Made by a program: the position numbers and the translations under genes. A DNA stretch of 33,931 nt, taken from contig JAGBZQ010000010.1 in NCBI GenBank assembly GCA_017628165.1, positions 1 through 33,931 on the forward strand. Direction: 5' to 3'. The notes under the pieces were generated by a model. The model did no database searches, was not told the DNA's origin, and saw only the letters and a list, made by a program, of their open reading frames with translations. Of this stretch, positions 12,510 through 33,931 are shown piece by piece (position 1 is the first letter of the stretch; the number at the start of each line of letters is the position of its first letter). This DNA comes from Kiritimatiellia bacterium. Lineage in GTDB: Bacteria; Verrucomicrobiota; Kiritimatiellia; RFP12; UBA1067.

Positions 12510-12528
12510 TTTTCCTCTCGCACTTTTC

Positions 12529-13569: not shown

Positions 13570-13595
13570 TTAACTGTGTTTAAAATTTTCAATTT

Positions 13596-13644
13596 ACCAA
13601 TCGCTAACCACCAACAGCCAACCGCTAACGACTAACCGCTAACC
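13596..13644 (-). repeat. Degenerate tandem heptanucleotide repeat, 7 units, consensus GGTTRGY on the coding (minus) strand
   Basis: The minus strand reads GGTTAGC GGTTAGT CGTTAGC GGTTGGC TGTTGGT GGTTAGC GATTGGT. The first unit contains the ackA TAG stop codon. The repeat lies in the longest intergenic gap of the window (69 nt). Confidence 0.85.
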
Positions 13645-14766: not shown

Positions 14767-14777
14767 AACTTTTCTTT

Positions 14778-17700
14778 TTATTCGGTAATTTTGACTTTGA
14801 AGAATCCGCTCGAAGCGCGCTTGAGATCCTCAATAATCTTGAGCGTGACCTCCTGCGGCTTATCCCCTACCGTGATCTGGACAGGGAAGGAAACCTCATC
14901 CCATTCGGACTTATCAAGCGTCTCTTTGTACAGAACCTGGCATTCGACAGTCTTCTCGCTATCGCCGGAAAGCGGAATGAATCCAAGGCCGTTAGCATTG
15001 CCTTCGGCGGTGTTGAGTTTACCTTCGATGGTGAGCTTTACGTTGCCATCAGCATCGAAACCTACGCCCGTAATCTCAATCTCCTCAACCTCGCTCTCGA
15101 CAGAGATGGAGCCGTCGGGACGGATTGTGATCGAATCGGGATCGAAACCGAGAGCAAGCGCGGTCATAGCGGGCGAAGAGAACGCCGTCATGATATAGTT
15201 GTTGTAGGCGTCCGTCCGGACAGATCCGACAACCTTGTCCTGAATGTTGGCGGTCAGGAGCTTGTTGATGGCGTAAGCGTTTGCCAAAGACGCATCAAGG
15301 CTGCTCGCCCCGTTATCGAGCTTGCCGCCATTCTTGACGAGCTCCCATGCGTCGGGCAGACAGCTGCCGTTCGTGTCGACATCCTCGATATAGATGTCAA
15401 TCGGAGCTGCAAAGCCATTAGCGTCGGTGACGACAAAGCCAAGAGGCGTATAGATGTCAGAGACCTTTTCGCCGCGCTTGCAAGCGTAGCCCCAGGACTC
15501 GGTGAGATCACGGACGCGCTTTGCCGTACCGGGGATATCCTTCATATCCGCGTAAGCCCTGAGGTAATACTTGCCGACGGGCACGCCGTACAAGAAGGCG
15601 TTCGTCTGATGTGTGACGCCCGCTGCAATGACGCTCTCAAGGTTATCCACCACAGCGCGCGCTGCGGGGATGCCGGTAAAGTCGGGCGTGGAGAACGCTT
15701 CCACCACAAACTCGGCCTTCTGGGCCACGCTGGCAGGCCCGAAGTATTTCACCGAGACGGGAATGTTCGCGTATCCGGCACCGATGGTGGGCGCGTTCAT
15801 GCGGAAGACGTAATTCTCCGTGGACCAAGCGTCCGTCTTGAACTTGGCGTTGTACATCGAGACCCTCCAAGTGTAGTTCTTGTTGTTCTCAAGCTCGTCG
15901 CCGATATACGCATCGGCTTCGAATGTATGGACGCCGTCAAGATCCTGCGCGGGAGCGCGGCGGAAGCCGGAATCCCAAACCACCTTCGTGCCGTCGAGAA
16001 TCTGCACCTTGAATGCCGTATATGTATGCGAACGCTTCGGCATTCTCCACTTAAACGTCGGATGAGTTCCGAAAACAACGGAATTTGCGGATCCGGGAGA
16101 GATGGCCTCAGCAACGGCCCGGCCGTTTTCAGGGTCGAAATAGCGGCGGACACCTACGGATGAACAAGGTGCAGTCTCCAGGTTTTCATCGCTTCCGAAA
16201 TAGATCAGATATCCGACCCATTCAACGTCATCACCCTTGTTAAAGCCGTTGATGATTTCATCGTAAAGACTATCCCAATCAAGATCCAACGCGCAATACT
16301 CGAGAATGTCCGCTTCTGTCAAGCACGCGTTCTGATCAAAATTAACAATCTTGTCAACGACTACGCGCAGAGGAGTGAAGGCCGGCTGCTTTCCATAACA
16401 GGAGGAATACGCGCGCACGACACGAATGCGCTCGGAACGCCCGCCGGAAACCGAGCCTCCATCGATTATGGACATATCGCTGCCGGCCTCTCCGAATATG
16501 ACCTTCCGGTCTGTTGTTTCCGTCGTAAGATTAATACGCGCAAAAACAGGATTCGTATCGGTAAGTTCAATCTCTGTCTTGGCCTGATGCCAGCCCACAT
16601 CAACACCAACGGCGGTGCCGAAAGGTTCGCCCGGCGTATAGTCGCCGCTGCCGTCAAGATCGTAGAACGCCACGATGGTGTTCTTTCCTTCCTTGACAAA
16701 GCCGTTTTCCGCCTCGCCAAGGAAGAGATCAAGCTTGTTGGACTGCATTCCGGGAACAACAGAATTGTACTTCAAGCGAAGCACCATCTGCGCCATGCTG
16801 ATTACAGCGGTGGAATTCGTCATCTCAACCCCGTGACGTGCGAGCGGAGTAAGGTCAAACGAATAGTCACCCGTCTTAAGATTGATCGTTCCCGTACGCT
16901 CTCCGCCGATGCAGATATAACCATTCTCGCCGGGGGTGTTGGTATCCTGGGTGACGGTAATAGCGCTGGCCTCTTCAAACTCGCCCCACTCGAACTCCGC
17001 AGACTGAAGCTGAATCAGATTCGGCCCGAACCTGTTGTAAAGGCTCATATACGCCTCATAGGAATCGGCGTAATATCCAGACGGCATCTGGGCGGCAAGG
17101 GCGGCGTCCACCCCGCTCAAATCGCCCACAAAGAACGTGTAGATGTCGTTGCGGTCGATCTCGGCAAATTCAAGCGTGAAGGATCCCGCGTTGATGTAGC
17201 CGGGGGTAAGAGTGCCGGAAACGGTCTTCTCGTCCCAAGGTCCGATGTACGCGATGTTCTCCCGCTCCTCTCCGGGCTGAATCGTAAATGTCGCATCCGC
17301 CACGGAAGAGCCGTCGCCCTTGCGCGTATAAGTCTTGACCACTATCGGAGCAAGAGTAGCCCTCTCTTCCTCGTTTCCGCCGCCACCTTCGTCGGAAGTG
17401 CCCGTCAAAGGCTGCAATCCGTTATAGCGGAGCGTGAGCTTCAAAGTCGGAATCGGCATATCCTTGATCTCGGAGTCTCCGACGACATGAGAAGCATAGG
17501 GTGCCACGATCGACTTCGTGAAGTTATGGAAACGCGCCTCGGCGTAGTTGCTCCAGCCGTCCTCGTCAGCATCGGAGAAAGCATCCCACTTGTAGCGGCT
17601 TGCAAACGCGGCGCCCCAGGAATCCTCGAGCTGATCCTCGATGAAGTCATGGTCGCTGAAGAGTTCGCCGGCGTAGAGCTCGCCTACCTTGATGAAGTAA

Positions 17701-20700
17701 TCAAGATCATAGCCATTGACACTCTTCGCATCAATCGGACTAAACTTGAGGCGATTGCCTGCGGAGTCCTTAACTTCAAAGACTTCGCTCAAGAGATACT
17801 CCGCCCAGTTAGAGAGACCATCACTATCATTATCGTCAACATCGCTCGAAGCGAAGATGTCGTACTTCTTCTCCCACCAATCAGGAATGTTATCGCCATC
17901 GGTATCGACAGTCGCCTTGTATGCCTCGTCAATGGTGCCATTAGGCTGCATACCGTTGATGAGATCAAACTTGTAGAGCTCGCCTGCGGTAGCCGGGAAC
18001 ATATCCTTGTGGAGGTCCTTGTATGCGGCAGGAACATCATTCTCGCCAATCATCATATCCCAGGCGATGTCAGTGCCGCCGGAGACAAGATTCTCCCACC
18101 AATCGGGAAGGCCGTCCGCATCATCGTCAGATCCGGTAAGATCCCATGCATCGGCAACGGCGCGGTCCCACATCTTCGGGCAAGTCTTCGCATAAGCATT
18201 GCCGAGCGGAATGAGATCCGTAGTGGCGGAGAAGCTCGAGCGCATCGCAAACTCTGCCATACGCTTATATGTCGCGAACGCTTCGCCATACTGCTCGGCA
18301 ACACGCGTAGCGGCAAAGACCTTCATATAACGATCAAGGTTATAGACCACGCTAGAGTAAGGCACGGCAGAGTTCGGGAATTCGAAGACCGCAAGCTCGT
18401 GCATCGCCGCAGGCGTGTAGAGGGCACCGAACTGCTTGGCGTAGATGGAGGTGTCCACCACATTTCCGTCAGCAAGCGGCAAGTGCCCCACTGTGTTCTG
18501 AATCCACGGCACTACATGATAATCAGAGTAAACGGTATTCTTGAGAAGGCTCTCGTTCCACCAGCCTACATTGAGATCGTCAGCCGATCCCTTAAGCGCG
18601 GCAACATCATAAAGACCGGCAGCATCGATCTCCGGATTGGCGGCGTAGCTGCCAACCGCAGCATCAAGAACCTTGGCGGCGAAACCGGCAGGCGTCTTAA
18701 GAACGTCTCCAGCGTTGACTGCGCCAGGAAGCGTCATGAAGTTATAGTGGAAAACAAGCTCGGCCGGGAGCATTTCCTCGCTGTCGTTATTATTGCGAGT
18801 AGCATCCTCAAGCCACGCATACGCCACTTCGCTACGGTTCTCAAGAGCATCCTCGAACGTATAGCGCTTGCGGAAATCGGCCTTGATTTCGGCAGCGGTG
18901 CGCGCGCCGTCCCAAACACGAACTTCGTCGATCCAGCCACCGAAGAACTCGCGCATGTTGGCAAAGGTTTCCAGATGATCGCCCGTGGTCTCGTCAATCC
19001 AGTATGGGGCGAGCGCAGCCTGAGGATCGCCAGAATTCTGCACCACCACCGAAGCCTTCTCGGGGCGAGCACCAATAATAAGCGAAGCCGGGAGCGAGGA
19101 GTAGCCGGTAGTGGGGATGCCACCTTCCGCACCAGGATTCTGCTGGAGCATCGTCACGCCGTTGGCAGGAATGAGTGTTGTCGCGGCGCTATTGACAGCG
19201 TCACCGTTCACATAAAGAGTGAGCGTAGAGCCGTCGAACGTAAGCGCCACGTGCGCCCATTCGCCCACAGTGAGGCTCGTACCGTCAACACGCTGGCAGC
19301 TGATCGGATGATTGAGACCAGACTCCATGGCATCGTTGTTGTCGAACATACCGTAGACGCGTCCGTCGCTATAAAGACCGATGCGGAAGTTCGCGCGAAT
19401 CGCGGCGGCGTCGCCCGTAATGCGGCTTCCATCGTAAACGATAGCACGCTCGATAATCGTCTGCTCGGCGCCCGTCTTCTCGGGCCTTACCCAGCACTCC
19501 ACCGTGAACTGCTTGAGGAGGTCGGACGACTGGATGGGACGCTCCTGAAGCTCTCTTGAAAGGGCATAGGACTGCACACCATCAAGATAGAGCGCCTGGC
19601 GGCGGTCAGGGTCCTCAAACTTGAGAGGATCGGTGGCAGGGGTGAAGCCAGTCACCACTTCCGCACCGTCAAAGACGAAGTCGCCGTCCGTATCGTAGCC
19701 TTCACCCTCTTCAAAGCCGTACATATACTCGAAGTCCATACCGCCGGCCACGGCTGCAATCTCGAACTCGGAGGACGGTGGCGGCATCCAGGGTTGCGCT
19801 ATGAGGCGCTGCGAAGTCACGTAATACTGCGCCACGTAGCTCACAGGAGTTGAGCGCTCGGTGAACCAAAGCGGAGTGGGGTCGGTATGGCGCGGCATCG
19901 GATCTGCCGCATTGGCCACGATGCGCTCGTCGTCATTGCGCATTCCGTCGCCGTCGGCATCTGCGAGAGCCGTACCCATGATCCACGGATAGAGAACTGC
20001 ATCAAACGCCTGAGGAGCCGCAATCGGAGTGGCAGCCACTGTGGGCGGCTCACCACTCACGCGGCCATCGAGGCTCACGTAATCGGGGAAAATCCACTCG
20101 TTATAGTAGGCGTTAAATGAGCCAAGGCAAGAGTCGCCATTGCGCTCGGCGTTGACAGCAGAGATGATATCGCCGCGCTTACCGCCAGTCCATACGGATG
20201 CGTCAGGCGAATCAACATTCGTTCCAAGAATCGGATTGAGACCGTGGAACATTTCATAGTAATCGTCCATGCCGTCGCCATCGGTGTCGGCCATGCGCGG
20301 ATCGGTGGTGACATATCCGGCCACGCTGCCTGAAGTAATCATAGAGGGCTCTTCGCCTTCTTCTGTCATAACGCTTACAGGCCACATATAAATCGGGTCT
20401 GCCAAAACAACGCTCGTGATGGCGCGATCCCACTCCTGAACGGGAGCGGCAAAGTAGCCGAGCATACGCCAACCTTCCTCCGTCCAAGGCTTCATGAGAT
20501 CATATACATCTGCACGAGCCTCCACATCCTGCGGAACCTCTCCCCATGCCTCTGTGACATTACCCTGGAATGTACCAACATCTGCCATATCGAAAGGCAC
20601 ATAGCCATAGAACGCCTGCTGGAAAGCGCCCTGATCACCAGAAAGGAGGCGTCCCATGAGCGGAGTGGAAACGTCGTCGTAGCGGAAGTGACGAACGGAC

Positions 20701-23700
20701 TGGATCAAGTACTCCTGGAAGTTCTGCAGGCCGTCGTGGTCAAAGTCCACATCGCGGACAGTGCCGAGAAGCGGATCGTAAGAAAGTCCTCTCTGGGCGG
20801 AATCGGTGCAGACATCGCCGGGGAACGTGGCGTCCATACCGCCGGCGATATAGATAACGGCAGTAAGGGCTTCACTATCAGCGGCACCACCAGCGGTGTT
20901 CGCATCTCCTGATGCGCTGTCCGTAGAGTTCGTGCCTGCGGCGGCTCCCGCAAGGCGAGCAAAGATACCGTCTGCCACCAAGGTTGCCATATCCACCTGA
21001 GCCGAGCCTACACGACCATTGTTGAGTGGATCTACCGGCGTGCCCGTGAGCGCATCCACAGGAATACCCGCATGCTGCATTTCCCAGCCGTCGGGGATGC
21101 CGTCAAGATCTGTATCGATCGTGCAGGGGTTCATGCCTGCGCCGCGGATGCAGCAAGAGCCGTCATCTGCGGGCGAACCATAGATAAAGCCGAGAAGGAG
21201 ATCCGTATAGGTATTGCCTCCATTGTAGAAGTCGTGCGCCCAATTGCCGCCCTCCTCACCGTCGGTCACACCATCGCGGTCCGTATCAGCGCCGGGGATA
21301 ATATCCTCACCCATGTGCTGACCAGGGCCGACAGTGTTGACACCAGGATTCGTCGGGAAGAACTTGTTGAACCAGCCCATCGTATTGCCAAGATGGTTCT
21401 TGTAGATGGAATCGCACCCCTTATACGCATTGCAGGAATCGGTACCTGCATATTCAAGAGCATAGCTAAGACCGTCGGCATCGTAATCAGACGCGCCAGG
21501 AATGCCTTCGCCGTCCTCAGCGCCAGGCACGAGAGGTGCGAGGCAAGGATTGCGGCCCATATAAAGCTCCCAGCCGTCAGGAACTCCATCAAGATCCGTA
21601 TCGGCGCCATGGGTGGTCACAGGAGTATGGATGCTGCCGGCCTGCTTAAATGCTTCCTGAAGCTTCTCGGCAATTTGCTGTGTGGACGACTTTCCGCCCT
21701 TCTCTTCGCCTTCACCTTCACCGTCACCTTCTTCTTCACCCTCACCTTCGGTCTTCGGATTCACAACATTTGGATTGGTGGTCATGTCCCCAAACACCCC
21801 CCATGGATGAGGCGTTGGAGGAACATCGTAATAAGAAATCTCAAAGTCGTTACGATACTTCATCACCAAATACTCGTCATAAGTATAGTAAGGACGGGTA
21901 TTGATGGCCGCGCCAGTGGTATCACCAAGCTGAAGAGCCGTATTGATCATGGGGTTCCAGCGATCGGTCACATAGCCGTTCACATTGCTCCAAGCAGTAC
22001 GCGGATCGAACCCGAACGCCTGGCGCACCTGATCGTGGATAAGGATACGGTCGTTGCCTGAAGTAATACGGGCTACTTCAATTCCCTCGGCGAGATTCTC
22101 GGAACCTACCTCGAGGACCTCCACCATCACATGGCCCCAAATGCGCTCAGCGGGTGGCACATTATCAGGATTGGGATCTCCCTCAAGACCATAGCGAACA
22201 ATCTCGCCATTAGCATCTTTCTTGACACCCACCCTAACGAAGCGCGCATTTTCTACCGCTTCAGTGAGAACGCGCCTAACTTCAAATGTAGGCTCGCCTT
22301 CGGGCTCCGCCGGCGGCACGGTCACCACGTCAATTCCGACAGCACCCTCGGGGATGTTGATATAGACCTTGAAGCCGCCTTGATCTTTCGAAGCATCGAG
22401 GTTGGCATCTGCAGGCACCCAACCATTGCTCAAGCGGAAATACGCCATGAAGTCTCCGTCAGGGTTGGTGCTCTTATCTGAATTACTGAGAGGATCAAGG
22501 CACATCATAACTTCCCAGCCGTCACACATGTGATCGCCGTCAGTATCCCAATGGCAAGGATTCGTGCCGATAACAAGCTCTTCAAGATCGGAGAGACCGT
22601 CGTTATCAAAATCGGGATTCTTGGCAAGCACGTCCGGCTCAAGAGGCGAGCAGGGATTGAAGCGAGCCTCGATATCGGCATCATCAATCGTCTTACCTTT
22701 GAGAATATTGGCATGATTGAATTTTTCTGCCTTGAAGTAGCCTGGCTTCGCGAGATTGTTGACGTGCGCCTGATACCAGAAGAAATACTCCCAGCCATCC
22801 GAGAAGCCGTCGCCGTCGGTATCCTCAACCGTCGGGTCCATGCGCGGGTAACGGTCGGAGCCCGGCTCAGGAGACCAAAGCTCGAGATCGGGCACGGCCG
22901 GATCAAGCCCCTTAGCGGCGGCAAAAGCCTGCCACGCCTCCGTTTCATCCGGAGGATCCTTGTCTGTGCCGTCGTCCTCAGGCTTCTCAGGTTCGATGAC
23001 ATTGAAATCAGCATCAGACCTCGTCATGTCAAGAGCATTGAGTCCGTCGCCTAAGCCGCGGATCTCCAGACGGGTCGTGAAGGGAAGCCCGATCGGCGCA
23101 TAACTGTTGCCCTTTCCGCCGTAAACTGCAGGAAGGAAGTCCTCGTCGGGATTGGAAGAGGAAAGATTGACGAGGTCGTTGTCGATGACCGCCTCGGCGC
23201 CGGTAACCAGATTGATCAGGTTGCCGCCGCCCCATGTCTTCACAGCAAAGACGTCAGGAATACCGTCGGCGTTGATGTCGCCGAGGTTGTCGCTCACGCG
23301 CCATTCGCGGGCAAAAATCGCCTCGACTTCCGTATCAAGGTAGTTGCCGTCCTTGGTCTGCTCGTTGGGGAGGTTCACACGCCCCGTTGCCGCCTTGCCG
23401 GGGATTTCAGGGGAAATCGTAGCGCCGAGGATGGAATCTGTCGAACCACCGTTTTCATCAACCGTATGAAGAATCCAGCAATAGAAGAAGGAGTCCTTCT
23501 TGTCTTCATCCTTCGCGGCATCGGCAAACGTGTAGCGATAGCAATTATTCTGATTTATGCTGACGCCAGCCTGCGCGCGGCCGTTCTTGTCGATCGCAAT
23601 GTCGTTTCCGCCGTCAAGCTGACCGCCGTCCACGGGATCGTTCACCTTGTAGCCGTACGCGTAAATCTCGACCGCCGTTTTCTTGGAGCAATTCCACTTG

Positions 23701-26700
23701 AGGCGGAAGTTGTTCGCGCTCGAGAAAGAAGCGCCGCTTCCGACAAACGTATGCCCCTGTCCGAGAGTTCCGTAAATGTTCGAACCGAGAAGCGCATACT
23801 TCTGCGAAAGCTTCGAAGTGGACGTGCCGCCCGAAGGACCGGTCGAAATCGTGGTAAGGAACTTAGAAGGCGTAACCTTGTAGAGGTACGTGTAGGTGGT
23901 GTAGCCGCCGTCCTTATCCTCGATCGTCATCGTGACGGTCTGGTCACCCTGGACCGAGCCGAAGTTGGGGATGAAGACGCCGCTCGTTCCCGATGTGCGG
24001 CTCGTCACGTACGCAAGGCCGTCGTCGGCATTGTCGCATCCGGCGAAGCTGACCTTGATGCCCGTCGTCTGACCGTCGGACCAAAGGCCGGTGTAGTCGT
24101 TGTCCACGTCATTGCGCACAGTCCAGCGGATAGGATACTGCGTGGCCGCGCCGCCCGCAACCTCCCAGCGGTTGCTTTCATTGTTCTGATCGGTGACCAC
24201 CGCTACAGGGGCGATGTTGTTGATATAGAAGCGCGTAGTCTGAGGGAGATAATATTCAGCCCAAGACTTGGCAGGATCGCTGCTTGCCGCCGTATTGAGA
24301 ACCTGCGCCTTTATGGAGAAGCCCGGCGACATGGTGAGCATCGTGCCGTCCATCTTTGTGACGGAAATCTCCTGACTCTCCGTACCGCGGAACTTAAGGA
24401 AGTAATGCTTGCAGCCCGCAGTGCCGTCTGCGGCGATCGCATTCGAAGCAAGAGTTTCATATCCCTGCGGAATATTCTCAAGAGCCGCATCAAGCTCCAG
24501 GACTCCGGCATTATCGCCCTCCGGCGGAATGACCGTAACCATTACCACCATTTCCTCGGCGGCATTGTAGTACCCGCCGAGACTGACGGAGACCTTGCGC
24601 CTCTTGGCCATTTCGCTGTCTACCTCTTCGCTAGGATCCTGAACATCCGCCACGACGAGCTGAGGCTGATCAACCACATCCACATAAACCTCGGCAAAAA
24701 CCTCCGACCAGTCGTCCATATCCTTGTCCTTGATCTGGACCTTGACCTTATAAGTGCCTGCCTGCTGGAATGTGACGGCATGCTTCTTGTCATTCGGATT
24801 GCCCACAATTGGCGTAACAGGAATCGTAATGCCGCCGCCGACGCGCGTAATCGTCCAGCGCGTGGTGAAGCCGTCCGTAAGATCGAATCCGCCCTTATCC
24901 TTGACAATAGCCTGGAACGTCTGAGTCTGCCCGATGGGATACGCGCCGTCGAACTTGAGAAGGCCGCCGTTCTCCACCGGCTCGAACCCGTTCATTTCAA
25001 TGCGCGTAATCTCAGGCACGACATTGAACACCTGAATTGTGGCGTAATTGGAGTTGTAACCGGTGACAACGGAATTGGGATCGTACTCGGCTTTTGTGCA
25101 GAGAACAACTGAGAAGTAGTAGGAGCTTCCGCCGGTATCCTCGCTCAGGCCGTCGAGCAGCTTGATCGAAGCAACAGCCTCTTTGCCGGGGCCGCCGTTG
25201 TCAGGATTGATGACGATACCCTTCGTAAGGAGATAGTCCTGCGCAGTCATGTCAGGCGTAATCACGCACTTGCGCCCGAGCGCGCTAAAGTGACCGGCCT
25301 TGGTTTCATCCGGTCCTGCCACAAGAAACGCATAAAGCTCCGAGCCCGTATCATTGTCGGCGTTAAGCTGGATCTTGAACTTGGCCGTATCGCCTTCGTT
25401 GTAGGTGTCAGACTCGGTTGTCACCATAACCGTCTTCGGGGCAGCCACCGTGGCTATAAGCTTAAGTATGACGCGCGTGCCGTTGATCGGATCGGTCACG
25501 CGGATCTGCGTGGTGAAGGATCCTGTTGAGGTGGAAGCGGAAGATGTGGGATAGACGAGCTCGGGAAGCTTGCCGGCTGCGTCGCGGAGAAGGCCGCCCT
25601 GTCCGATGTAGAAGAAGCCGGAGAGCTCCTTCCAGCCGAGGGAATCGTTGTACTTGATCTCCACCTTGTAGCCATTGGCGGGACTCTCAATCTGCTGGGC
25701 GGCGTAAGTGTCGGCAAGCTCGATCTCAAGCTCCTGCGCAACGCCTGCCGTAGCGCCGATTTCGGAATCCTCGAGAGGAGAGTCAAAGCGCGGAGCCTCA
25801 GCCACCACTTCACAGCCGCCGGCCACGAAGCGATCCTGAGAGGTGAGCCCCGTAGCGGTCTGCTGATCGGCAGGAATCGAAGGCGTAAAATCGATTGTGG
25901 CGCCGCCGGAGGTGCGCGCGTCAGCCTTAAGGAAGAAGGCGTAAATCTTAGCGGAAGCCCTAAGCTGCCCGGCGGGGATCGTGACGGTGGCGGTATCGCT
26001 CAAAGCCGCAATCGTCTTAACCGACGTGGCAGATGTGGAGAAACGGACATAATCCGCCATATCACCGTCAAATCCGACGATGGAGGGCGTGACGGTAACA
26101 TCGATCGGCGTTGCGACAGGCTGGGTGAGCGCCACATCCACGATGGCGGAATATTCCTTCCAACCGTCGCCAACCTTGGCGTACGCCTTGTCGCGATCAA
26201 CGCTTACCACCACCGTGGGCGGAAGCGGCTTAAGGCATTTGACGGGAACCGTCACATAATCCGTAAGACGAACATTGGAAGCATTGAAATTGTATCCGAT
26301 CCAGGGGCTGAGCACGAGCTCGCAGGTCTTGCCTTCGCCGCCGGCGGCGCCTTCAATCTGGAAGTCCGCCGTCATCTGGCCGCTGCCAAAGGTGATCTCG
26401 CCCACCTTGACGCTCTTTTTGATGGGATTGCCTCCTTCATAGCCGACAATCATTTCAACACTCGTGCCGCCCTTGATGGTAACGGCGTCATCATCGGTGG
26501 ACCATACATAGAGCGTTACGGCGTGATCGGGGGCCGCGAGAGCCTCGAGCATGGGGGCCGTATTTCCGCCGGTGATGGATGAGGACTCGTGGACTGTGCG
26601 CCAGACGGCTCCAGCCTCGCCCTTGGGGATTTCCCAGTTGGCGTCAAAGCCGATAGTCTGAATATAGAATCCGCACTTAGCAAGGGTATAATCAAGCGCA

Positions 26701-27326: not shown

Positions 27327-27351
27327 GATGATTTATCCCTCTTTGCTAAAA

Positions 27352-27708
27352 TTACCTGCTCTGGGTGGCTCTCATCTGATTGGCCACCGTCTCGCGCGCC
27401 TTGATCGTATGCTGCTTCATCAGCTCGGCGTATTTATCCACTTCCGCCTGAAGCTTCGCAAGGACCTCGGCGGACTGATTAGCCGCCTTTGCTTCCTCGA
27501 GAGCTTTGACCGCTATGGAAGCGGCTTTCATAATCTCCCTGCGCGCCGAATTCAGTTCATTGAGTTTCTCAAGATAAACAGGATCGTTCATGCGTCTTTT
27601 AACCGGATCTTTCTCGACTGACGCGGCATCTGCATCAGACGACTTCGAGCATCCGGCAAGGATACTCGCGCCGATCATAAGCGCTATAACGGAAGTTTTA
27701 ATTGCCAT
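27352..27708 (-). CDS. Small coiled-coil lipoprotein (118 aa) between the two giant genes
   Basis: It has a textbook lipobox (MAIKTSVIALMIGASILAG|CSKS). The rest is helical and charged (LEKLNELNSARREIMKAASIAVKALEEAKAANQSAEVLAKLQAEVDKYAELMKQH). Its start overlaps the upstream gene's stop by 11 nt. Confidence 0.8.
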   Translation of the reverse strand: MAIKTSVIALMIGASILAGCSKSSDADAASVEKDPVKRRMNDPVYLEKLNELNSARREIMKAASIAVKALEEAKAANQSAEVLAKLQAEVDKYAELMKQHTIKARETVANQMRATQSR

Positions 27709-30700
27709 AGTAGTTTTCTTTCTTCAAAAGCTCCACGGTGAAGGGCTTGAGCTTCGTGTCAATCGCCCACTTGAAAAAGATAGGTGTCTGGCCGTGCTGC
27801 TCAACCCATTCCGACCAGCCTGCGCCATATCCGGGAGACTCGGTGCCGAGCGGATCTTTCACCTCAATCTTGGAGATGAAATCGGCATCAAAGGAGTTGT
27901 CGTCAAAAACAAACCACCTGAGCGGCACCCAGTTCTGCTCGTTCTGCTCGCTCGTAAGACCGTTGGCCAGAAGGCCCGCCACCTTGAACGTGACGCTCGT
28001 CCAGGCCACATTCCCCGCCAGATCCTTGGAGAGCGAGCCTGGCTCAAGACCTCTGAGCGTATACGGTGCGTATGCCGTCTTGCCGTTGAAATACGTTTCG
28101 GCATTCTCGGACGTATTCGTCACGAACATCTTGACGGACATCTTGACGTTGGTGACGGATTCAGATCCCAGATATCCATCCTTGATCGCCGGAAGCGGTG
28201 CGGAAGCCATACCGGCCACAAACGCCTGGTTGCTGACGGTAGGATCAATATCGAGCCAGTAAATCTGCGTAAGAGTGAGGTTCGTGACCACCGTTCCATA
28301 AAGCGAACGGAATTCTACTGGGCAGATTTCCTCCAAGCCGTAGTTCTTCCACCGGCCCTTCGCCGTGCTGCCCTCCTCAAGCCATTTCATGATGGCGTCA
28401 CGATATTTGTTGTCTACCGTAAGGCCGTAATCAGTCTCAAGATCGCTGCGCACCTTTGCGCCCGCCACGACAGTAACGTTATTGGATGCACCCACGCCCA
28501 CGGTGACCTGATACGTGCGCGGCGCAGCAAGGGGCGTAGCCACCGCCGCGCGGCCGTTTGTGGTGACGCCCGCAAGCTCATACCAGGGATCGACCGTATA
28601 TGTGATGTTCGTTCCGCGGTCGCTGCCCTTCTGGATCACGAGAATCTGGTTCCTGTTTGTGTTTACGGCATCGCCGATCGTCTGGTAGATGTGGCCGAAG
28701 ACATTGTCGAGGTTGGCATAGATGATGATCGATGAGCCGTTCGGCGTGGGGTGATCCGGGTCAATCTGCTGGCCTTCGTTTATGCGGCCGGGGGTCATGG
28801 TGACGACGCGCGACCAGTCATTAGAGACCTGCCCGCGATTCGTAAGTACGCTGAGCGAGAGGTTCTCGCCTGCATTATCCTCGCCGACATACTGGAAATC
28901 GGAGCCCTTCATCATGCGGTTGAGCGCATTGACGGTATTCGAGGGCTGCATATCGGTGTAGGACTCCCAGACGCCGGACCAGTAGTTCGTGCCGAGCGCC
29001 ACGATCTCATGCTCCACGATGCCGCTGCCGCGGACGAGCTGAATGCCGATAGGCTCGATGGAACTTATCTCCTCGGCGGAAACGTCGGCGGAAGGATAAT
29101 CCACATTCCAAACTCCGTCAAGAGTGCCATCGGCATACTTAAGCCGCTGGCTCTGACGCGAACGGGTGTTGCCGAGGACGCGGAAGACCATGTTCGACGC
29201 CATGCCGGTCAGATTCGGCTTCGTAGGCTCAAGATCGGCAGATCCGAAACGGCCGATCGTATTCGTCACCACTATGTTGCTTCCGATCAGGGCCTCGAGG
29301 ACGCGGACGCTCCATCCTGTGATATCGGCCTCGGCGGGAACCGCGATCTCCACAAACTGAAGGTCTCTGTCGGTATTCACGTAGTTGCTGTTGTATGTGC
29401 CGAAAAGATTGACCTCGTTGATCCACGCCCACTTGGGAGCCACGGTATCGAGAATGTTGTACGCCGTGAAAGCGTCCTTGCCCGCATTTTTGTCCACAGG
29501 CGCATACCACTCGGGCGTCGTCCATGATCCGGCGGAGGAAAGGTAGTTCGTGACGGGCACATTGCTATCCTTCTGATAGTAGACCACTTCAAGCTCGTAC
29601 TGCACCACTGTGCCGGGCGCGAACGACGGGGTGACAATGGCATCCTGAGCCGTCGTATAGCTTGAGCGGTAGATGAGATTTGTGCCGGTAGCACGTGCCA
29701 AAAGCGCAGACTTTGCCCCCTTCACACCCTTCCAGTTCACATAACCCCAAGGATACTCGCCCTCAAACCAATGGAGACGGACGGAAGGCGTGCGCTCGAA
29801 ATCAATCTCATCGGCAAGCTGCGCGGCGAAAATCTCGCACTGGATGCCCCAGCTCTCGTTGCAAAGCGGCTGCTCCGCCGTGCTCGGCACATTAGAGACG
29901 TATCCCGTGCCGTCCAAATGCGTCCTGAACGCGCCGACATTCCTGAATGCGAGCCTTGCGCGAACAGCCTCGGAAACCACCACTTCGTCGATGAGGACTC
30001 TCACCGGATTTTCATAGCCTTCAGGCTTATGATTTTGGACGTGAGGATCGGCAATGCCGTCGATGCCCGTCACCGCCAGGCGGAACGCCGCGTACGCCTT
30101 GGAAGGATCGGTCTTGTATGAAAAAGTCTCGTATGTCTTGTTGGAAACGACGAACTTCTCCAAAAGCTCCCAATTCTGATCCACGCTGCCGGTGAGCGAA
30201 CCGTAGAGCGTCACCTGAGCGGGCTGAGAATTGCCAAGGTCAAATTTACGCGCCTTGAAAGAGACTTCGCCCACGAGATTGGAGACGAAGGTAGGCGTCT
30301 GAACAAACGGCTGATGCGCCTTGTATGCCTCCTCTTTCATCGGCTCCACATTCGCGGCCCAGGAGTTGTTGAGTGCCAAGGAAAGCCCGCGGCTCACAAC
30401 GTTAGTCCCAGTAGAATCATCGCGGACGAACGAATACATATCGGAGAGAAGCATACGCTTTTCCGTGTCGAGATCGCCGCCGAGAGTGCGGAGGTTCCAG
30501 CCCCACCATGAGCCGGAATCGAGCATAGGCTCGTCACGGCAAAGAACATCGGTGATGAGAATCTCTGCAAAATTCTTCGGATCCATCTCGTCCTGGACGT
30601 CCTCTACCACCTTAGGATCCATCACAAGGCGCACAACGCCCTTGACGCCGTGAAGCCCCAAGTAGACACTGAAAGTTCCGTTTTCAGGCAAAATATATTT

Positions 30701-33700
30701 GCCAGAGGAATCCTTTTCTGTAAAGTCGATAACAAAAGGCTTCCCGTCTTTCTCGTATGTCGTCCAAGTAGCGGAATCAAAATTATGGATATTGTCGATA
30801 TTAGATGAGTTGACGTTGTTTGTAGCAATCTGAACGAGAAGCTTCACCTTGCGAAGTGATGTCTTATAATCCGCTGACGAACCTGCGGGGGCGTAGTTGA
30901 ACGAAAGCATACCGATGCCGGCGCCAGCGTTGTAGCCGTCAAAAAGCGGCGAACGGATGGACGCAGGCTTCTCAGGCGTAGTGCGGCGACCAGAGAGGAG
31001 AATGCCCTTGTTTTTAATCCACGAAGAAGTGAAGATGATGTTCGTAAGCCCTCTATAGTCAGAGGCATCATTAAGCCCGGGGATGCACTCTCCGCCGACA
31101 TTCGCCCAATCATCGCCGCGGAACTGCTTAAGCTCGATATCGTCGATGACAACATCTGTGCGGATATCGTCCGTAGAGCCGTTGTGCTTAATCTTGACGG
31201 AGCAATCGCTTGTCGTATAGACCTTGATATCGTTTGCCTTGGGAGTTCCAAACGTATCGCAAGTCTCGCTCTTGAGAAGCTTCCAGTCCGTCTTGCCTGC
31301 GCTTGCCGTAAGAATATCAATCTGCTGCTCTGGAACGACATTCTTAAGCGCTGTGACCACATCGCTTACCGGCACCGCTGTCATTCGCGCAGGACGAATA
31401 TACCACAAATCATTGCGGATCTGCGATGTCGCCACTCCCGACGGGTTGGAGAATGTAACAAGGTTATTGGAAAAAATGTCAAATGTATTCGCCGGTCCGA
31501 TCTGGGCAGTCTGTGCGATAGGCTTTTCAAAAACCACATAATTGGAAAAATATCCTTCGCTGTTCGCGGAAAGTAAGCCATACGTACCACCCTTAAGACG
31601 CTCGTCCGAAGTATCGCGATAGCAAATCATATTATACTGCTTGCCAGAGATTTCGCTCGTACTGAACGAAGGGGTGACGGCATCACTCAGCTTATATCCC
31701 GCAACAATACAGGTGCCCGTAGGGCTAGACGCAAGCGAAATAAAGAGCGGCCTGTAGCCCTTGCCAGTCAAGGAAGAGCATTCGGGCCAATTATCCTTTT
31801 GCCCGTAAGAATCCACATACTTCTCGCCAAGCTTCTTGGACAGAATCTTGCCCTTTGCATCGTATGTCCAACGATAAAGCGAGAGCACCTGCCCCTGTGC
31901 ATTGTATTCGCCGTTCTTGGCCTTGGCCTGCTCGACACGGAACTCGTAAAAACCCTTGTCCCGGCGGTAGTAGCCGATGAGAGAAAGCGAAGCGTTGCCG
32001 GTAAAGCTTTTGTTCTTTTTAAGATCGAAGGCACTTGCCGCCACAAACGAATAATTCGTCATTGTGCTCTTGAGAGGTGCATCATAGTAAGCAAAATCAT
32101 CGAAGTTTATGAACTGCGACAACCGCACCTTGAACGAGATTGATTCAAGACCGCGCGGAGACTCGGCGCCGTCCACAAACTGGATATAGCCCTTGCCCTG
32201 ACCATGCATCTGCAGGGCGCGATCGGTAAAGCCATTGGATTGCACCTGAGCATCCCTGTACTTGCCGTAGATATACATGCCGTTCTCGGCCGTCCAGTTG
32301 TTCGGAGTCACCGTAGAGTCAAAGGAAACATAATCGCCATATTGCTGCTGCGTTGTATACTCAAACGCCTCACGCCAATGCTTATTGACACTCGGCATAT
32401 CGCTCCAATTGTCAAATGATTCCACATAATCCTTGGACTTTGCCGACGCGCCAGACTTGTCCACGCTGTCGTCGCTCGTGGAAGTGCCCCGGTAGACGCT
32501 ACCTTTGGCATCATTCCATGCATTGAAGTTCTGATAATCGGCGTGGACGACCGTAAGCCCCCTCGTGGTTTCATCAATCTGGAAGAGGAGATATCCCGTC
32601 ACGGCATCGCACGGAACCGTAGCCCAATCATCATCACCATCGGCAACTTTAAGTATATCGCTCACGGGAAGCGTCTCAGAGTTGGCTGTAGCGCGCCAGA
32701 CAGCCGTATTCGTCTCCCATTCGGCAGCGCCCGGCTCCTGGCGGTTCATAAGCTCAAAGCGATATTTCACACCTTTCGCAAGCGGCTCGGCAGTCTTCAA
32801 GTAGCCGCGCCACATTCCGTTACCCACCACTGCCATATCAACAAAGTTCGTCTTGACGAAAACGCCTTCGTATTTCTCCTCTTCTGTAATCGCCACAAGG
32901 CGAATGGACTCATAATCGCTCTTCCCCTCCCTCAAGCGAACGAACCAATCGCGCCCCATACTCTCGGCAAAATAAACATTAGCCCTGTTGGTGACAACGG
33001 CAACATTTTCAGTGTAAAGCCCGGAGAGGCCCAAATTCGCGCCGGAATAGTCCACATACTCATAATAGGGAGCCTTAAGGAACGACTCAAACCAGAACTC
33101 CACATCGCCTTGACGCCCCGCAGGGAGCTGAAGCGGCGCATCAGCCTTAAAGCCATTCTTGTGGTCAAGCCCCACCTCCTGCCACTCGCCATACTCCTGC
33201 TCCAAATAGCGCCAGCGGTAATGCATCTTAACCCCCGTAAAGAATTCGGCGGTATCTGCATCTTTATTGCCACAATTCGTAGTATACTTGGCATTGCCGC
33301 GCGCCAAAATGTTCGTATCATTCACAGACGGGAACGGGACATTCCATGCGCACGCCTGCCCCAGAACCTGCGCTCCGCCGCGATTGGGATTGTACTCGCC
33401 GCACGGCTCCATATCGGCACGCATCGCCGGATACGATACGATGATGTTGTCGAGGAGGACATATTTTGCAGTTAATGCAGAACCCTCTGCCGCTGATACC
33501 CTTTTTATTCTAAAACGAATAGGTCCGCGATAATCAACCTTGGCGCAAACTCGGTAAAAATTATCACAAGTTCCACCGTTGTTTATGGCGAGCGCAAGTT
33601 CATTCGTTTTTCCGGCCGGCTCAAAATTCGGTGTTCCGTTTTTAACGAGCGGCAGAAGCTCCACCCTGTCCCATACTGCATTACCATAGCGATCTGTTAC

Positions 33701-33931
33701 CGTCTCGCCGCTGTTTTCATCTAAAGTTGTACGAAGAAGATTTTCATCTGTAGGAATCTGGTAAACTGCGCTGACAGTATTAGTACAAATTTCAACGACT
33801 ATCTTGTACTCATCGCCAGTTTCCGACACAGATGAGTTAACGGCATCAAAGTAAATCGTTCCGATTCCGTTAGTATAACACGGCGAATAAATCTCTGCAT
33901 TCGTTGTATTACGCATAATCAAATGCGCCGA
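27698..33931 (-). CDS. Very large beta-rich, W/Y/N-rich protein (at least 2074 aa) with repeated jelly-roll-like modules and a lamin-tail-domain-like segment. It is probably 5'-truncated by the window edge.
   Basis: The track starts it at a TTG at 33922, but the frame stays open to 33931. The visible N-terminus (MIMRNTTNAEIYSPCYTNGIGTIYFDAV) has no signal peptide. It already sits in the motif that ends the internal modules. Confidence 0.85.
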   Translation of the reverse strand, partial: SAHLIMRNTTNAEIYSPCYTNGIGTIYFDAVNSSVSETGDEYKIVVEICTNTVSAVYQIPTDENLLRTTLDENSGETVTDRYGNAVWDRVELLPLVKNGTPNFEPAGKTNELALAINNGGTCDNFYRVCAKVDYRGPIRFRIKRVSAAEGSALTAKYVLLDNIIVSYPAMRADMEPCGEYNPNRGGAQVLGQACAWNVPFPSVNDTNILARGNAKYTTNCGNKDADTAEFFTGVKMHYRWRYLEQEYGEWQEVGLDHKNGFKADAPLQLPAGRQGDVEFWFESFLKAPYYEYVDYSGANLGLSGLYTENVAVVTNRANVYFAESMGRDWFVRLREGKSDYESIRLVAITEEEKYEGVFVKTNFVDMAVVGNGMWRGYLKTAEPLAKGVKYRFELMNRQEPGAAEWETNTAVWRATANSETLPVSDILKVADGDDDWATVPCDAVTGYLLFQIDETTRGLTVVHADYQNFNAWNDAKGSVYRGTSTSDDSVDKSGASAKSKDYVESFDNWSDMPSVNKHWREAFEYTTQQQYGDYVSFDSTVTPNNWTAENGMYIYGKYRDAQVQSNGFTDRALQMHGQGKGYIQFVDGAESPRGLESISFKVRLSQFINFDDFAYYDAPLKSTMTNYSFVAASAFDLKKNKSFTGNASLSLIGYYRRDKGFYEFRVEQAKAKNGEYNAQGQVLSLYRWTYDAKGKILSKKLGEKYVDSYGQKDNWPECSSLTGKGYRPLFISLASSPTGTCIVAGYKLSDAVTPSFSTSEISGKQYNMICYRDTSDERLKGGTYGLLSANSEGYFSNYVVFEKPIAQTAQIGPANTFDIFSNNLVTFSNPSGVATSQIRNDLWYIRPARMTAVPVSDVVTALKNVVPEQQIDILTASAGKTDWKLLKSETCDTFGTPKANDIKVYTTSDCSVKIKHNGSTDDIRTDVVIDDIELKQFRGDDWANVGGECIPGLNDASDYRGLTNIIFTSSWIKNKGILLSGRRTTPEKPASIRSPLFDGYNAGAGIGMLSFNYAPAGSSADYKTSLRKVKLLVQIATNNVNSSNIDNIHNFDSATWTTYEKDGKPFVIDFTEKDSSGKYILPENGTFSVYLGLHGVKGVVRLVMDPKVVEDVQDEMDPKNFAEILITDVLCRDEPMLDSGSWWGWNLRTLGGDLDTEKRMLLSDMYSFVRDDSTGTNVVSRGLSLALNNSWAANVEPMKEEAYKAHQPFVQTPTFVSNLVGEVSFKARKFDLGNSQPAQVTLYGSLTGSVDQNWELLEKFVVSNKTYETFSYKTDPSKAYAAFRLAVTGIDGIADPHVQNHKPEGYENPVRVLIDEVVVSEAVRARLAFRNVGAFRTHLDGTGYVSNVPSTAEQPLCNESWGIQCEIFAAQLADEIDFERTPSVRLHWFEGEYPWGYVNWKGVKGAKSALLARATGTNLIYRSSYTTAQDAIVTPSFAPGTVVQYELEVVYYQKDSNVPVTNYLSSAGSWTTPEWYAPVDKNAGKDAFTAYNILDTVAPKWAWINEVNLFGTYNSNYVNTDRDLQFVEIAVPAEADITGWSVRVLEALIGSNIVVTNTIGRFGSADLEPTKPNLTGMASNMVFRVLGNTRSRQSQRLKYADGTLDGVWNVDYPSADVSAEEISSIEPIGIQLVRGSGIVEHEIVALGTNYWSGVWESYTDMQPSNTVNALNRMMKGSDFQYVGEDNAGENLSLSVLTNRGQVSNDWSRVVTMTPGRINEGQQIDPDHPTPNGSSIIIYANLDNVFGHIYQTIGDAVNTNRNQILVIQKGSDRGTNITYTVDPWYELAGVTTNGRAAVATPLAAPRTYQVTVGVGASNNVTVVAGAKVRSDLETDYGLTVDNKYRDAIMKWLEEGSTAKGRWKNYGLEEICPVEFRSLYGTVVTNLTLTQIYWLDIDPTVSNQAFVAGMASAPLPAIKDGYLGSESVTNVKMSVKMFVTNTSENAETYFNGKTAYAPYTLRGLEPGSLSKDLAGNVAWTSVTFKVAGLLANGLTSEQNEQNWVPLRWFVFDDNSFDADFISKIEVKDPLGTESPGYGAGWSEWVEQHGQTPIFFKWAIDTKLKPFTVELLKKENYYGN
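29130..29440 (-). other. Lamin-tail-domain (LTD)-like segment in the 2074-aa protein
   Basis: PKWAWINEVNLFGTYNSNYVNTDRDLQFVEIAVPAEADITGWSVRVLE resembles the LTD core pattern (INE ... E[FW][IV]E[IL] ... [DV]L[ST]GW). This is motif-level evidence only and the coordinates are approximate. Confidence 0.4.

Follow-up and report, generated by a model that had tools for sequence, protein, structure and literature searches.

Giant repetitive surface adhesins such as LapA, SiiE and the Bap-type proteins are secreted by T1SS, and the giant flavobacterial surface adhesin SprB is co-transcribed, in the sprCDBF operon, with small envelope proteins needed for its handling. In the Omnitrophota, genes for giant proteins adjoin T2SS-like loci (West-Roberts et al. 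2023, bioRxiv 10.1101/2023.11.21.568195). DUF2341, whose annotation places it among the predicted parts of type IV pili-like systems, occurs in Patescibacteria in proteins of more than 4000 aa for which a role in adhesion has been proposed (PMC11809585), and Amuc_1098-Amuc_1102 of Akkermansia muciniphila constitute a 'pili-like' cluster (Ottman et al. 2017, PMC5332112). Here we analyse one entire 33.9-kb contig (the window) of a Kiritimatiellae MAG, on which a small gene lies between two giant ones, called A and B below.

Like the Omnitrophota giants, those described here are secreted proteins of very large size and for the most part without annotation. In both cases there are modules related to attachment or carbohydrates and Ca-binding (dockerin-type) ones, and the genes lie next to secretin or T2SS/T4P-like genes of a lineage not yet cultured. 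It is a likeness without demonstrated sequence homology and implies no predatory lifestyle here; moreover, proteins of the window's type have 3-6 thousand aa rather than tens of thousands, the phylum is Kiritimatiellota, from the gut, and only a PilM/N/O/P/Q-type subcomplex is present, downstream and separated from the giants by ackA-pta-kpsF. The genes of that subcomplex are homologues, in the same order, of Amuc_1098-1102, although the scores for Amuc_1098 and Amuc_1101 fall below the equivalog cutoffs; this cluster is the context of the giant operon and not the finding itself. With the T1SS adhesins the giants share huge size, Ca binding, a wealth of beta-sandwiches, the lack of catalysis and a length that varies by module number, but they have no RTX repeats, T1SS genes or tandem Ig repeats, and their signal is a Sec peptide rather than a C-terminal one. 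As in sprCDBF, the gene of a giant, putative surface protein is grouped with a gene for a small envelope protein, but the giants have no T9SS C-terminal domain match and the phylum is another. TSP3 Ca-binding loops recall the Myxococcus envelope proteins CglD and MtsD (local NCBIfam matches, 2.8e-7 and 2.9e-5), but these matches span the TSP3 stretch alone (~130 aa) and reach 29 bits against a cutoff of 800.

Gene layout and domain composition

Giant gene A, the small gene and giant gene B all lie on the minus strand, tightly packed or overlapping in the ORF listing (Table 1). The head-to-tail arrangement of the preliminary description agrees with the ORF coordinates and with the sequence of the 11-nt overlap between gene A and the small gene, ATGGCAATTAA. 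A 25-nt gap with a Shine-Dalgarno-like site, AGAGGGA, separates the small gene from giant B, and ackA begins 11 nt past the giant B stop codon. Gaps within the block are very short, no intergenic terminator was predicted in it, and the co-directional genes run on into coaE, rho and uvrA.

Table 1. Features of the giant operon and of the genes downstream of it, in window coordinates
Feature	Position	Strand	Remarks
Giant gene A	27698-33922/33931	-	ORF, 2074/2077 codons, open to contig end
Small lipoprotein gene	27352-27708	-	ORF, 118 aa; overlaps end of gene A
Giant gene B	14778-27326	-	complete ORF, 4182 aa
Giant B signal peptide	27255-27326	-	aa 1-24, ...VISACSFA/AT
Giant B N-terminal region	23426-27254	-	aa 25-1300; most variable part
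Giant B TSP3-type Ca-binding loops, dispersed	17538-23279	-	aa 1350-3263; DxDxDGxxDxxE
Giant B LamG/concanavalin-like lectin domain	19176-19517	-	aa 2604-2717, best-scoring stretch
Giant B 'supermodule'	15327-18176	-	aa 3051-4000; helical TSP3 cluster, then beta-sandwich string incl. Ig_Rha78A_N
Giant B C-terminal domain	14781-15326	-	aa 4001-4182; ends in conserved SGFFKVxVxE motif
ackA	13639-14766	-	between giant B and secretin cluster
pta	12529-13569	-	between giant B and secretin cluster
KpsF-like SIS+CBS isomerase gene	11517-12509	-	between giant B and secretin cluster
Amuc_1102-1098-like type IV pilus-like cluster	3615-11489	-	candidate outer-membrane route
Amuc_1102-like gene	10743-11489	-	weak Amuc_1102 match
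PilM-like gene	9006-10715	-	Amuc_1101_fam 7.5e-103; has TM segment
Amuc_1100-like gene	8065-9015	-	weak Amuc_1100 match
Amuc_1099-family gene	6986-8068	-	Amuc_1099_fam above its cutoff; two TSP3 loops
Amuc_1098-family secretin	3615-6938	-	Amuc_1098_fam 5e-118

Only the 3' two-thirds of giant gene A are present, and since full-length orthologues have ~2900-3450 aa, ~1370 aa should be missing. What remains is a ~2070-aa C-terminal core conserved across the family (350 representatives at 50% clustering), which always matches at the C-terminal end of proteins of 2200-7000 aa, the full-length range of the family. The variable N-terminal heads consist of a signal peptide, 0-4 Gly_rich_2 and, in many but not all orthologues, DUF2341 and LamG; it is these heads that recall the DUF2341/LamG giants of PMC11809585, but giant A's own head is missing from the window and DUF2341 is absent in some orthologues. 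Searches with the core against Pfam, NCBIfam and PDB sequence families gave no match. An AF2 model of aa 878-2077 (pLDDT 76) consists of nearly all strands, which bears out the earlier description of this protein as beta-rich, and Foldseek matched it solely to generic jelly-roll/CBM/MAM/MG-like folds with low TM-scores.

Giant B aligns end to end with eight orthologues of 4114-4433 aa. Of the 'signal or lipobox' N-terminus first proposed, the signal peptide stands; at the lipobox position the orthologues read ...TAGASSGATGDIF, and because the cysteine is not conserved SPase I cleavage is likelier than lipidation, so that giant B is itself probably not a lipoprotein. LamG was found in all nine proteins (PF13385, 71 bits), as a single domain just as had been described, and a profile search of the PDB matched it to the LamG domain of pappalysin (2.8e-7). 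The count of at least 16 TSP3 repeats is roughly right, with 12 canonical and 17 relaxed motifs against 0.13 expected in shuffles, and TSP3_bac is found in eight of the nine. The C-terminal beta-sandwiches also hold up: Ig_Rha78A_N occurs in 8/9, and a low-confidence AF2 model of the C-terminus (pLDDT 59.5) gave Foldseek matches to Ig/FN3/MG arrays, again with low TM-scores. The Calx-beta-like modules, in contrast, find no match in any of the nine, and the PKD-like module (aa 798-878) is sub-threshold only (17.3 vs 23.5 bits, seen in 2/9).

Giant B has no HExxH, LPXTG, PEP-CTERM, RTX GGxGxD or thioester motif and no T9SS or autotransporter family match, in line with the catalytic and sorting signals already reported as not seen. 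More broadly, both giants carry Sec signal peptides (for giant A from the full-length orthologue P0003) and are mostly beta-sandwich chains, and neither has an internal repeat, catalytic motif, known sorting signal, internal TM segment or prepilin-type leader. They share a polarity, with variable N-terminal parts, head domains that differ between orthologues, and conserved C-terminal parts. In giant B the N-terminal region (mean pairwise identity 0.30-0.49) is presumed to be the distal or ligand-facing end and the supermodule, ~900 aa, is the best-conserved part, present once in the window and in 2 to at least 7 copies in relatives. The giants diverge far more rapidly than the housekeeping genes next to them: between relatives giant B is 29-57% identical vs 78-92% for ackA (except the more distant L032, ackA 60%).

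The small protein is, as reported, a lipoprotein in this window, with an LAGC lipobox followed by a helical (coiled-coil-like) tail free of Pro and Gly. In this it resembles the Lpp/OprI alanine-zipper lipoproteins, but the match is weak and sub-threshold (21 bits, cutoff 43) and the C-terminal lysine is lacking. Its positional homologues have 111-208 aa. The notion of a dedicated lipoprotein applies to some lineages; others (L010, L013, L014 and L024) have a plain N-terminal TM anchor in place of the lipobox, and one junction, in L028, lacks the gene.

Conservation of the triplet and its neighbourhood

The triplet is found again at ~18 related loci in MAGs and metagenomes of herbivore guts, and a small gene lies between the giants at 17 of the 18 visible junctions. 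This answers the preliminary description's question about conservation in relatives, and the comparison of gene orders supports the triplet as a conserved, uncharacterised module. Downstream of it, ackA-pta-(kpsF) and then the secretin cluster follow in each of the 19 relatives whose flank is long enough; in the window the three housekeeping genes together span 11517-14766 (-), and their order is kept in all relatives.

The synteny may reflect descent rather than function, because the block includes coaE, rho and uvrA and the relatives are close: all syntenic genomes but L032 share at least 78% ackA identity with the window, and the more distant supermodule-bearing genes L015-L017 have no ackA or secretin after them within their short visible flanks. 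The giants could then be ordinary lineage-specific surface proteins with an unlinked export route, their adjacency to ackA-pta-kpsF and the secretin being gene order inherited in one family. We consider this possible but on balance unlikely, as the 5' flank of gene A differs between loci and has been rearranged repeatedly, whereas the downstream junction has stayed intact throughout, also at loci with inserted extra giant genes; the short gaps without a predicted terminator also speak against it.

The preliminary description had called the export route not obvious and had set, as what would overturn its proposal of an uncharacterised system, homology to a known secretion substrate class with its transporter nearby. 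It had overlooked that genes for an Amuc_1098-family secretin and its PilM/N/O/P-like partners lie 3.3 kb past the giants in the same orientation; by that same rule their presence weakens the export mystery. However, no known class of secretion substrate is homologous to the giants, and ackA, pta and kpsF intervene. The TM segment in the PilM-like product indicates a PilM-PilN fusion, and orthologues of the cluster in relatives carry PF28178 and PF28028. The window contains neither a pilin gene nor one for an ATPase (PilB/GspE) or a platform protein. The neighbouring secretin is a plausible candidate for the export route of the giants.

Proposed function and alternative readings

We give about even odds (roughly 0.5) to a clade-specific operon of herbivore-gut Kiritimatiellae for a pair of giant cell-envelope proteins together with a small helical partner anchored in the membrane. 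Its product would most likely be a long, Ca-stabilised adhesin or fibril with glycans or particles as ligands. LamG with the jelly-roll/CBM-like folds, the Ca-binding loops, the fast divergence and the variation in module number all fit adhesion or glycan capture. In such an assembly Sec would export the giants and their conserved C-terminal parts would remain cell-proximal, where the small lipoprotein or TM coiled-coil protein, or else Ca-dependent contacts, may keep them in place; ligands would be bound by the outward-facing N-terminal heads of variable make-up, the number of supermodules would set the reach of the fibre, and the outer membrane might be crossed via the PilM/N/O/P/Q-like secretin of the same co-directional block. 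The secretin synteny, the TSP3 loops in the Amuc_1099-like component and the precedents of the Omnitrophota giants and of DUF2341 also speak for this reading. Points against it are the housekeeping genes lying between giants and secretin cluster, the lack of a prepilin leader and, in the window, of pilin, ATPase and platform genes, L015-L017 with no ackA or secretin in their short visible flanks and the L028 junction without a small gene, and the low pLDDT of the giant B model with the low Foldseek TM-scores. We also know of no T2SS substrate that approaches 450 kDa, which counts against it too.

A secretin cluster that stays linked to the giants, whatever lies upstream of them, would also suit pilus-associated adhesins or cargo of an Amuc-type machine, PilY1/MshQ-like tip or fibre proteins that the downstream system presents rather than merely lets through. 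The DUF2341 and LamG of many giant A heads agree with this, given the type IV pili-like annotation of the former, as do the TSP3 loops common to giant B and the Amuc_1099-like component. We nevertheless regard it as improbable: the giants match no NCBIfam pilus protein model, some orthologues have no DUF2341, no prepilin leader was found, and pilins and ATPases are not nearby, where housekeeping genes intervene.

We think it similarly unlikely that the giants form a periplasmic or envelope-internal scaffold, a spacer or lattice between the membranes with the small lipoprotein or TM coiled coil as its tether. Sec signals without a recognisable outer-membrane sorting signal, the plain inner-membrane-type TM partner of some lineages, the faint Lpp/OprI-like coiled coil and a resemblance of the MG-domain arrays to bacterial periplasmic alpha-2-macroglobulins are set against the missing thioester motif, the lectin and CBM-like folds, and the very fast divergence with varying heads and module numbers that is typical of exposed proteins.

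Kiritimatiellae are glycan degraders, large stretches of the giants are without annotation, and the Foldseek matches of giant A include GH2 N-terminal sugar-binding domains and sialidase CBMs. These points would suit enzymes that process polysaccharides while bound to the cell, with the LamG/CBM-like domains binding substrate and a novel catalytic domain somewhere in the unannotated stretches. We regard this as very improbable: there is no HExxH, neither Pfam nor NCBIfam gave a catalytic family for the 9 giant B and 18 giant A orthologues, and the Foldseek matches, low in TM-score, are to non-catalytic beta-sandwich parts.

Organization of the gene block

The best-supported reading of this locus is that of a clade-specific operon for giant, Sec-exported, calcium-binding envelope proteins with lectin and Ig-type domains. 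The window is a complete contig (33,931 bp) of a Kiritimatiellae MAG. All credible genes of the window lie on the minus strand, so that the contig is a single co-directional gene block, and the ORF positions and order in the preliminary description were correct, as was the 11-nt overlap it reported between the gene of the first giant (gene A) and the small gene (ATGGCAATTAA). The small gene is followed by a 25-nt gap with an AGAGGGA ribosome-binding-like site and then by the gene of the second giant (gene B), 11 nt separate the stop codon of gene B from the start of ackA, and the central fermentation genes ackA-pta and a KpsF-like gene, with gaps of 19–69 nt, come between the giant genes and a pilus-like cluster. 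With ackA placed so close behind a 12.5-kb gene and with such short gaps, either co-transcription or promoters inside gene B are implied. No intergenic terminator was predicted in a promoter/terminator scan of the window and, since every terminator-like match falls inside a gene, the scan gives no usable operon boundary; Rfam and tRNA scans were empty. Horizontal transfer was rejected, GC content being unremarkable over the whole window. Antisense ORFs within the giants (up to 1131 codons) were likewise rejected as real genes: orthologues have similar stop-free stretches of up to 1879 codons at other positions, and this shifting position, together with the in-register antisense frame, identifies them as an artefact of codon usage.

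Features of the window, genes in order of transcription
Feature	Coordinates	Strand	Remark
Giant gene A	27698-33931	-	cut by contig end
Small gene	27352-27708	-	118 aa
Giant gene B	14778-27326	-	4182 aa
SGFFKVxVxE motif, end of giant B	14781-14810	-	
Gap between gene B and ackA	14767-14777		
ackA, pta, KpsF-like SIS+CBS gene	11517-14766	-	
Homologues of Akkermansia Amuc_1102, 1101 (PilM-like), 1100, 1099, 1098 (secretin)	3615-11489	-	
Amuc_1099-like gene	6986-8068	-	within the preceding cluster
coaE, then rho		-	
uvrA, 5' part	1-1522	-	begins 6 nt past rho, leaves contig at end
Stop-free antisense frames	16164-19559, 23055-25112, 20913-22061, 27578-28735	+	inside giant genes

The giant proteins and their small partner

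Giant B was aligned end to end with eight orthologues of 4114–4433 aa. These were taken from related loci; a protein-database search with its C-terminal part returned fragments only, not the 4182-aa protein itself. The shorter proteins encoded next to it on the contig are in that database, in which very long proteins seem to be under-represented. An N-terminal signal peptide is conserved among the orthologues. The lipobox read at this N-terminus in the preliminary description does not hold for the family, since the cysteine of ISAC is kept in the window but most orthologues read ...TAGASS/ASFA... without a cysteine, making cleavage by signal peptidase I likelier than lipidation. The LamG lectin domain proposed from the sequence was recovered as Laminin_G_3 (PF13385) at aa 2604–2717, with 71.1 bits against a gathering cutoff of 27.6, and is found in all nine orthologues; a profile search of the PDB matched it to the LamG domain of pappalysin, the only match that PDB sequence and profile searches gave for the giant proteins. 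The TSP3-type calcium-binding loops (DxDxDGxxDxxE) are equally well borne out, with 12 canonical and 17 relaxed motifs scattered over aa 1350–3263 where shuffled sequences lead one to expect 0.13 canonical ones, and TSP3_bac (PF18884) is matched in eight of the nine orthologues (best E = 4.7e-13), the window copy scoring 21.9 bits, just below the cutoff of 25. The C-terminal beta-sandwiches also stand: Ig_Rha78A_N was found by Pfam in 8/9 orthologues, and a poor AF2 model of aa 2983–4182 (pLDDT 59.5) agrees, a helical region of TSP3 loops being followed by a string of sandwiches whose Foldseek matches are generic (complement/alpha-2-macroglobulin MG arrays, FN3 and cadherins, with TM-scores <0.3). 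Of the PKD-like module a sub-threshold Pfam match is left, and the Calx-beta-like modules were not recovered, no profile matching at E <= 0.05 in any of the nine orthologues. Giant B carries no HExxH, CxEQ, LPXTG, PEP-CTERM or GGxGxD motif and no internal transmembrane segment, and BLAST found neither internal repeats in the giants of the window nor similarity between them. Mean pairwise identity among the orthologues rises from 0.30–0.45 in the first 1300 aa to 0.5–0.72 in aa 3100–4000.

The visible part of giant A, 2077 codons, is the C-terminal two-thirds of a protein whose full-length relatives reach ~2900–3450 aa. In P0003, a full-length orthologue 67% identical to it, an ordinary signal peptide, two Gly_rich_2 domains, DUF2341 and LamG stand at the N-terminus, and the 2070-aa part seen in the window lies C-terminal to such head domains. 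This conserved core has no Pfam match in any of 18 orthologues, no NCBIfam match (the full-length protein likewise has none, pilus models included), and neither sequence nor profile searches of the PDB gave a relative. When 1.84 billion representative proteins were searched exhaustively, 350 relatives emerged (249 with E below 1e-30), and the core always matches the C-terminal end of proteins of 2200–7000 aa, the N-terminal heads of which vary from none to four Gly_rich_2 domains, with or without DUF2341 and LamG. Among the 18 orthologues DUF2341 occurs in the heads of ten and LamG in five; this part of the protein is cut off in the window, and some orthologues do not have these domains. An AF2 model of aa 878–2077 (29-sequence alignment, mean pLDDT 76) is almost wholly beta-strand, in keeping with the earlier description of giant A as beta-rich, and its Foldseek matches (E ~1e-4 to 5e-9, TM-scores <0.3) are generic, among them jelly-roll/CBM, MAM, the GH2 N-terminal domain, the ligand-binding domain of ephrin receptors, BcsB, MG domains and multi-sandwich phage tail proteins. 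Going by this model, we read this part of giant A as a probable chain of heterogeneous binding-type beta-sandwiches; no catalytic fold was detected. Outside the window, the Gly-rich head of P0003 (aa 61–392) matches the phage protein family phrog_2295, of unknown function (E = 9e-63), the sole match in a PHROGs search, indicating a domain shared with phages.

The small protein is a periplasm-facing, membrane-anchored helical partner. In the window a classical lipobox (SILAGC/SKSS) after an N-terminal hydrophobic segment bears out its assignment as a lipoprotein, and its tail runs for ~70 residues without Pro or Gly. The Lpp/OprI alanine-zipper family (NF040598) was rejected, its weak match of 21.2 bits lying well under the cutoff (43), and the C-terminus reads ...ATQSR, without the terminal lysine used for linkage to peptidoglycan. 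A gene of 111–208 aa, usually overlapping the end of gene A, occupies the equivalent position at 17 of the 18 inspectable A-B junctions, so that the triplet, whose conservation in relatives had been put forward as a check, is conserved; several of these positional homologues resemble the small protein of the window in sequence, including an RMxDPxY..KL motif. The exception is locus L028 (750–828), where the small gene is absent and A and B lie 78 nt apart, and the small protein is thus conserved but not indispensable. Of the dedicated small lipoprotein that had been supposed to pair with the giants, the pairing stands and the lipidation is less constant: most orthologues have a lipobox, but those at L010, L013, L014 and L024 carry an N-terminal transmembrane helix only.

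Conservation and module number across gut loci

The C-terminus of giant B was scanned against species genomes of GTDB and metagenomes of JGI, and loci were also looked up from giant A and PilM homologues; some two dozen different loci were obtained, the gut samples coming from yak, sheep, goat and other hosts. Given enough flanking sequence, ackA and pta always come after giant B (or after an added giant gene), and an Amuc_1102-to-1098-like cluster comes next in 19 loci. Departures from this plan are minor, L022 and L025 for instance lacking kpsF. The upstream flank of gene A differs between loci: L002 has gyrB there, and L001, L030 and L031 have unknown genes unrelated to one another. Identity to the proteins of the window is 29–57% for giant B and 27–64% for the proteins of the pilus-like cluster, against ~84% for rho and 78–92% for ackA in all loci save L032 (60%), which indicates that the giants diverge at least as quickly as the envelope machinery and far more quickly than housekeeping genes. 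An operon of 23–30 kb per genome, kept across the clade while quickly diverging, represents a large genomic investment.

More distant relatives revealed that aa 3051–4000 of giant B form a repeatable unit, a supermodule of ~900 aa in which a TSP3 cluster is followed by beta-sandwiches. Counted with an HMM built from the copies, it occurs once in the window and in orthologues of ~4100–4400 aa (L004, L010, L013, L014, L024), twice in L027 (5441 aa) and L029, at least three times in L026 (a stop-free stretch of 6452 codons) and at least seven times in L032 (1–23239), spread over three consecutive ORFs of 6185, 2233 and 2168 aa; further copies lie in an additional 8076-aa gene of L033 (14032–23978). 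In all these loci, single-copy ones included, ackA-pta closes the array wherever the flank can be seen, except in L033, which stops within the extra gene. Variation in length through the number of modules is typical of stalk-like surface adhesins.

Export, function and the downstream pili-like cluster

The Amuc_1098-1102 system has been intensively studied in Akkermansia because of Amuc_1100. A complete cluster of this type, in a gene order identical to that of Akkermansia, is present in the window, just outside the stretch singled out in the preliminary description. Its secretin (1107 aa) matches Amuc_1098_fam strongly (5e-118) but below the equivalog cutoff, and PF00263 Secretin at 8.6e-31; the PilM-like protein likewise matches Amuc_1101_fam strongly below the equivalog cutoff (7.5e-103) and TIGR01175 pilM with 156.8 against a cutoff of 133; the Amuc_1099-like protein scores above the cutoff of its family, and the Amuc_1100- and Amuc_1102-like proteins match theirs weakly, their orthologues being recognised by PF28028 and PF28178, two more recent Pfam families. 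A transmembrane segment near aa 364–390 of the PilM-like protein suggests a PilM-PilN fusion, the two proteins after it are anchored by N-terminal transmembrane segments, and the secretin carries a signal peptide. The type of TSP3 loop seen in giant B occurs twice in the Amuc_1099-like protein (aa 134 and 160). In Akkermansia the cluster encodes abundant envelope proteins for which pili-like structures have been proposed (PMC5332112). Our literature search found no mention of the cluster in Kiritimatiellae, of giant proteins in Kiritimatiellae, or of a link between MshQ and LamG.

The giants were compared with the known classes of exported or anchored giant proteins. RTX/T1SS adhesins were rejected with no GGxGxD motif, no ABC, MFP or TolC genes in the window and no tandem Ig or internal repeats by BLAST; T9SS cargo with no C-terminal sorting domain of the TIGR04183 type by NCBIfam; autotransporters and two-partner secretion with no Pfam or NCBIfam match and no barrel by Foldseek in the modelled C-terminal regions; and PEP-CTERM or LPXTG anchoring with both motifs and a C-terminal hydrophobic segment absent. 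Bacterial alpha-2-macroglobulins were rejected as well, for Foldseek finds MG-like arrays but there is neither a CxEQ thioester nor a Pfam A2M match. Motif and family searches thus uphold the absence of HExxH, PEP-CTERM, LPXTG, autotransporter and RTX/T1SS signals reported in the preliminary description, and by these tests the giants belong to none of the classes named. The accompanying statement that the export route is not obvious is softened by the secretin cluster within the same window.

Most likely the giants are surface fibrils or adhesins, as judged from their domain types, the polarity of their conservation, their fast divergence and the variation in module number. The variable N-terminal heads would then point towards the environment and the conserved C-terminal parts would be cell-proximal, with the small anchored coiled-coil protein as a putative partner accompanying them. 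We hypothesize that they are exported through the neighbouring secretin, on the basis of adjacency, the shared TSP3 loops and two leads from the literature: DUF2341, which many giant A heads contain, has been annotated as a part that type IV pili-like systems are predicted to have, and it occurs in Patescibacteria in proteins of >4000 aa (PMC11809585), and giant genes of Omnitrophota adjoin T2SS-like loci (10.1101/2023.11.21.568195). As type II secretion substrates of this particular secretin the giants are candidates by genomic adjacency and synteny. We give rather low odds to a bolder version, in which the PVC-type PilM/N/O/P/Q machine would have the giant pair as its long-sought cargo or fibre, the secretin both exporting and holding modular, calcium-stiffened adhesins whose reach would depend on how many supermodules they carry, with the small coiled-coil anchor as a dedicated tether or chaperone; if true, very large proteins would have a new route of secretion and anchoring.

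A rival explanation is that the adjacency of giants and secretin is inherited synteny without meaning. The syntenic genomes are close relatives except L032 and the block also holds the unrelated coaE, rho and uvrA, so that synteny alone is no proof of a functional tie; moreover, the short flanks seen for the distant supermodule-bearing genes of L015–L017 show no ackA after them, and the ORFs flanking them gave no family matches. Alternatively, the giants may be a pilus-tip or fibre-associated adhesin, perhaps akin to pilus-associated proteins with DUF2341 and LamG such as MshQ; both domains occur in part of the giant A heads, and no NCBIfam pilus model is matched. A periplasmic scaffold would suit the plain membrane anchor that the small protein has in some lineages, and the fast divergence and varying module number are among the points that made us favour surface fibrils or adhesins over it. 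An enzyme with a hidden catalytic part is the weakest of these alternatives, its place would be in the long stretches without family matches, with HExxH absent from giant B and no catalytic fold seen in the modelled part of giant A.

As giant, non-catalytic, calcium-binding surface proteins of bacteria that come with accessory genes and in some cases adjoin secretin systems, the giants are of an already known kind. What appears to be undescribed so far is the giant A family, with its 2070-aa core and no detectable relatives beyond ~350 clusters, the paired A/small/B architecture, the ~900-aa supermodule, and the constant place of the genes, upstream of both ackA-pta and a cluster of the Amuc_1098-1102 type. 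In ruminants and other herbivores, gut Kiritimatiellae (lineages of the RFP12 type) are common, though uncultured, and we know of no account of their attachment to particles, mucus or other cells; the core family and the repeatable supermodule offer a concrete handle on their cell surface. Should the linkage to the cluster be functional, it would point to the cargo of that system and add an export route for very large proteins, and should it not be, the locus is still a well-delimited, fairly ordinary lineage-specific adhesin locus.

The motif SGFFKVxVxE forms the C-terminal end of giant B in nearly all orthologues. It could be a lineage-specific C-terminal signal or merely the last strand of a sandwich. 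In L019 an additional 822-aa gene with Listeria-Bacteroides repeats (Flg_new; L019 3016–5484) lies between giant B and ackA, and near the end of its product stands a similar stretch, MFYKIKV.
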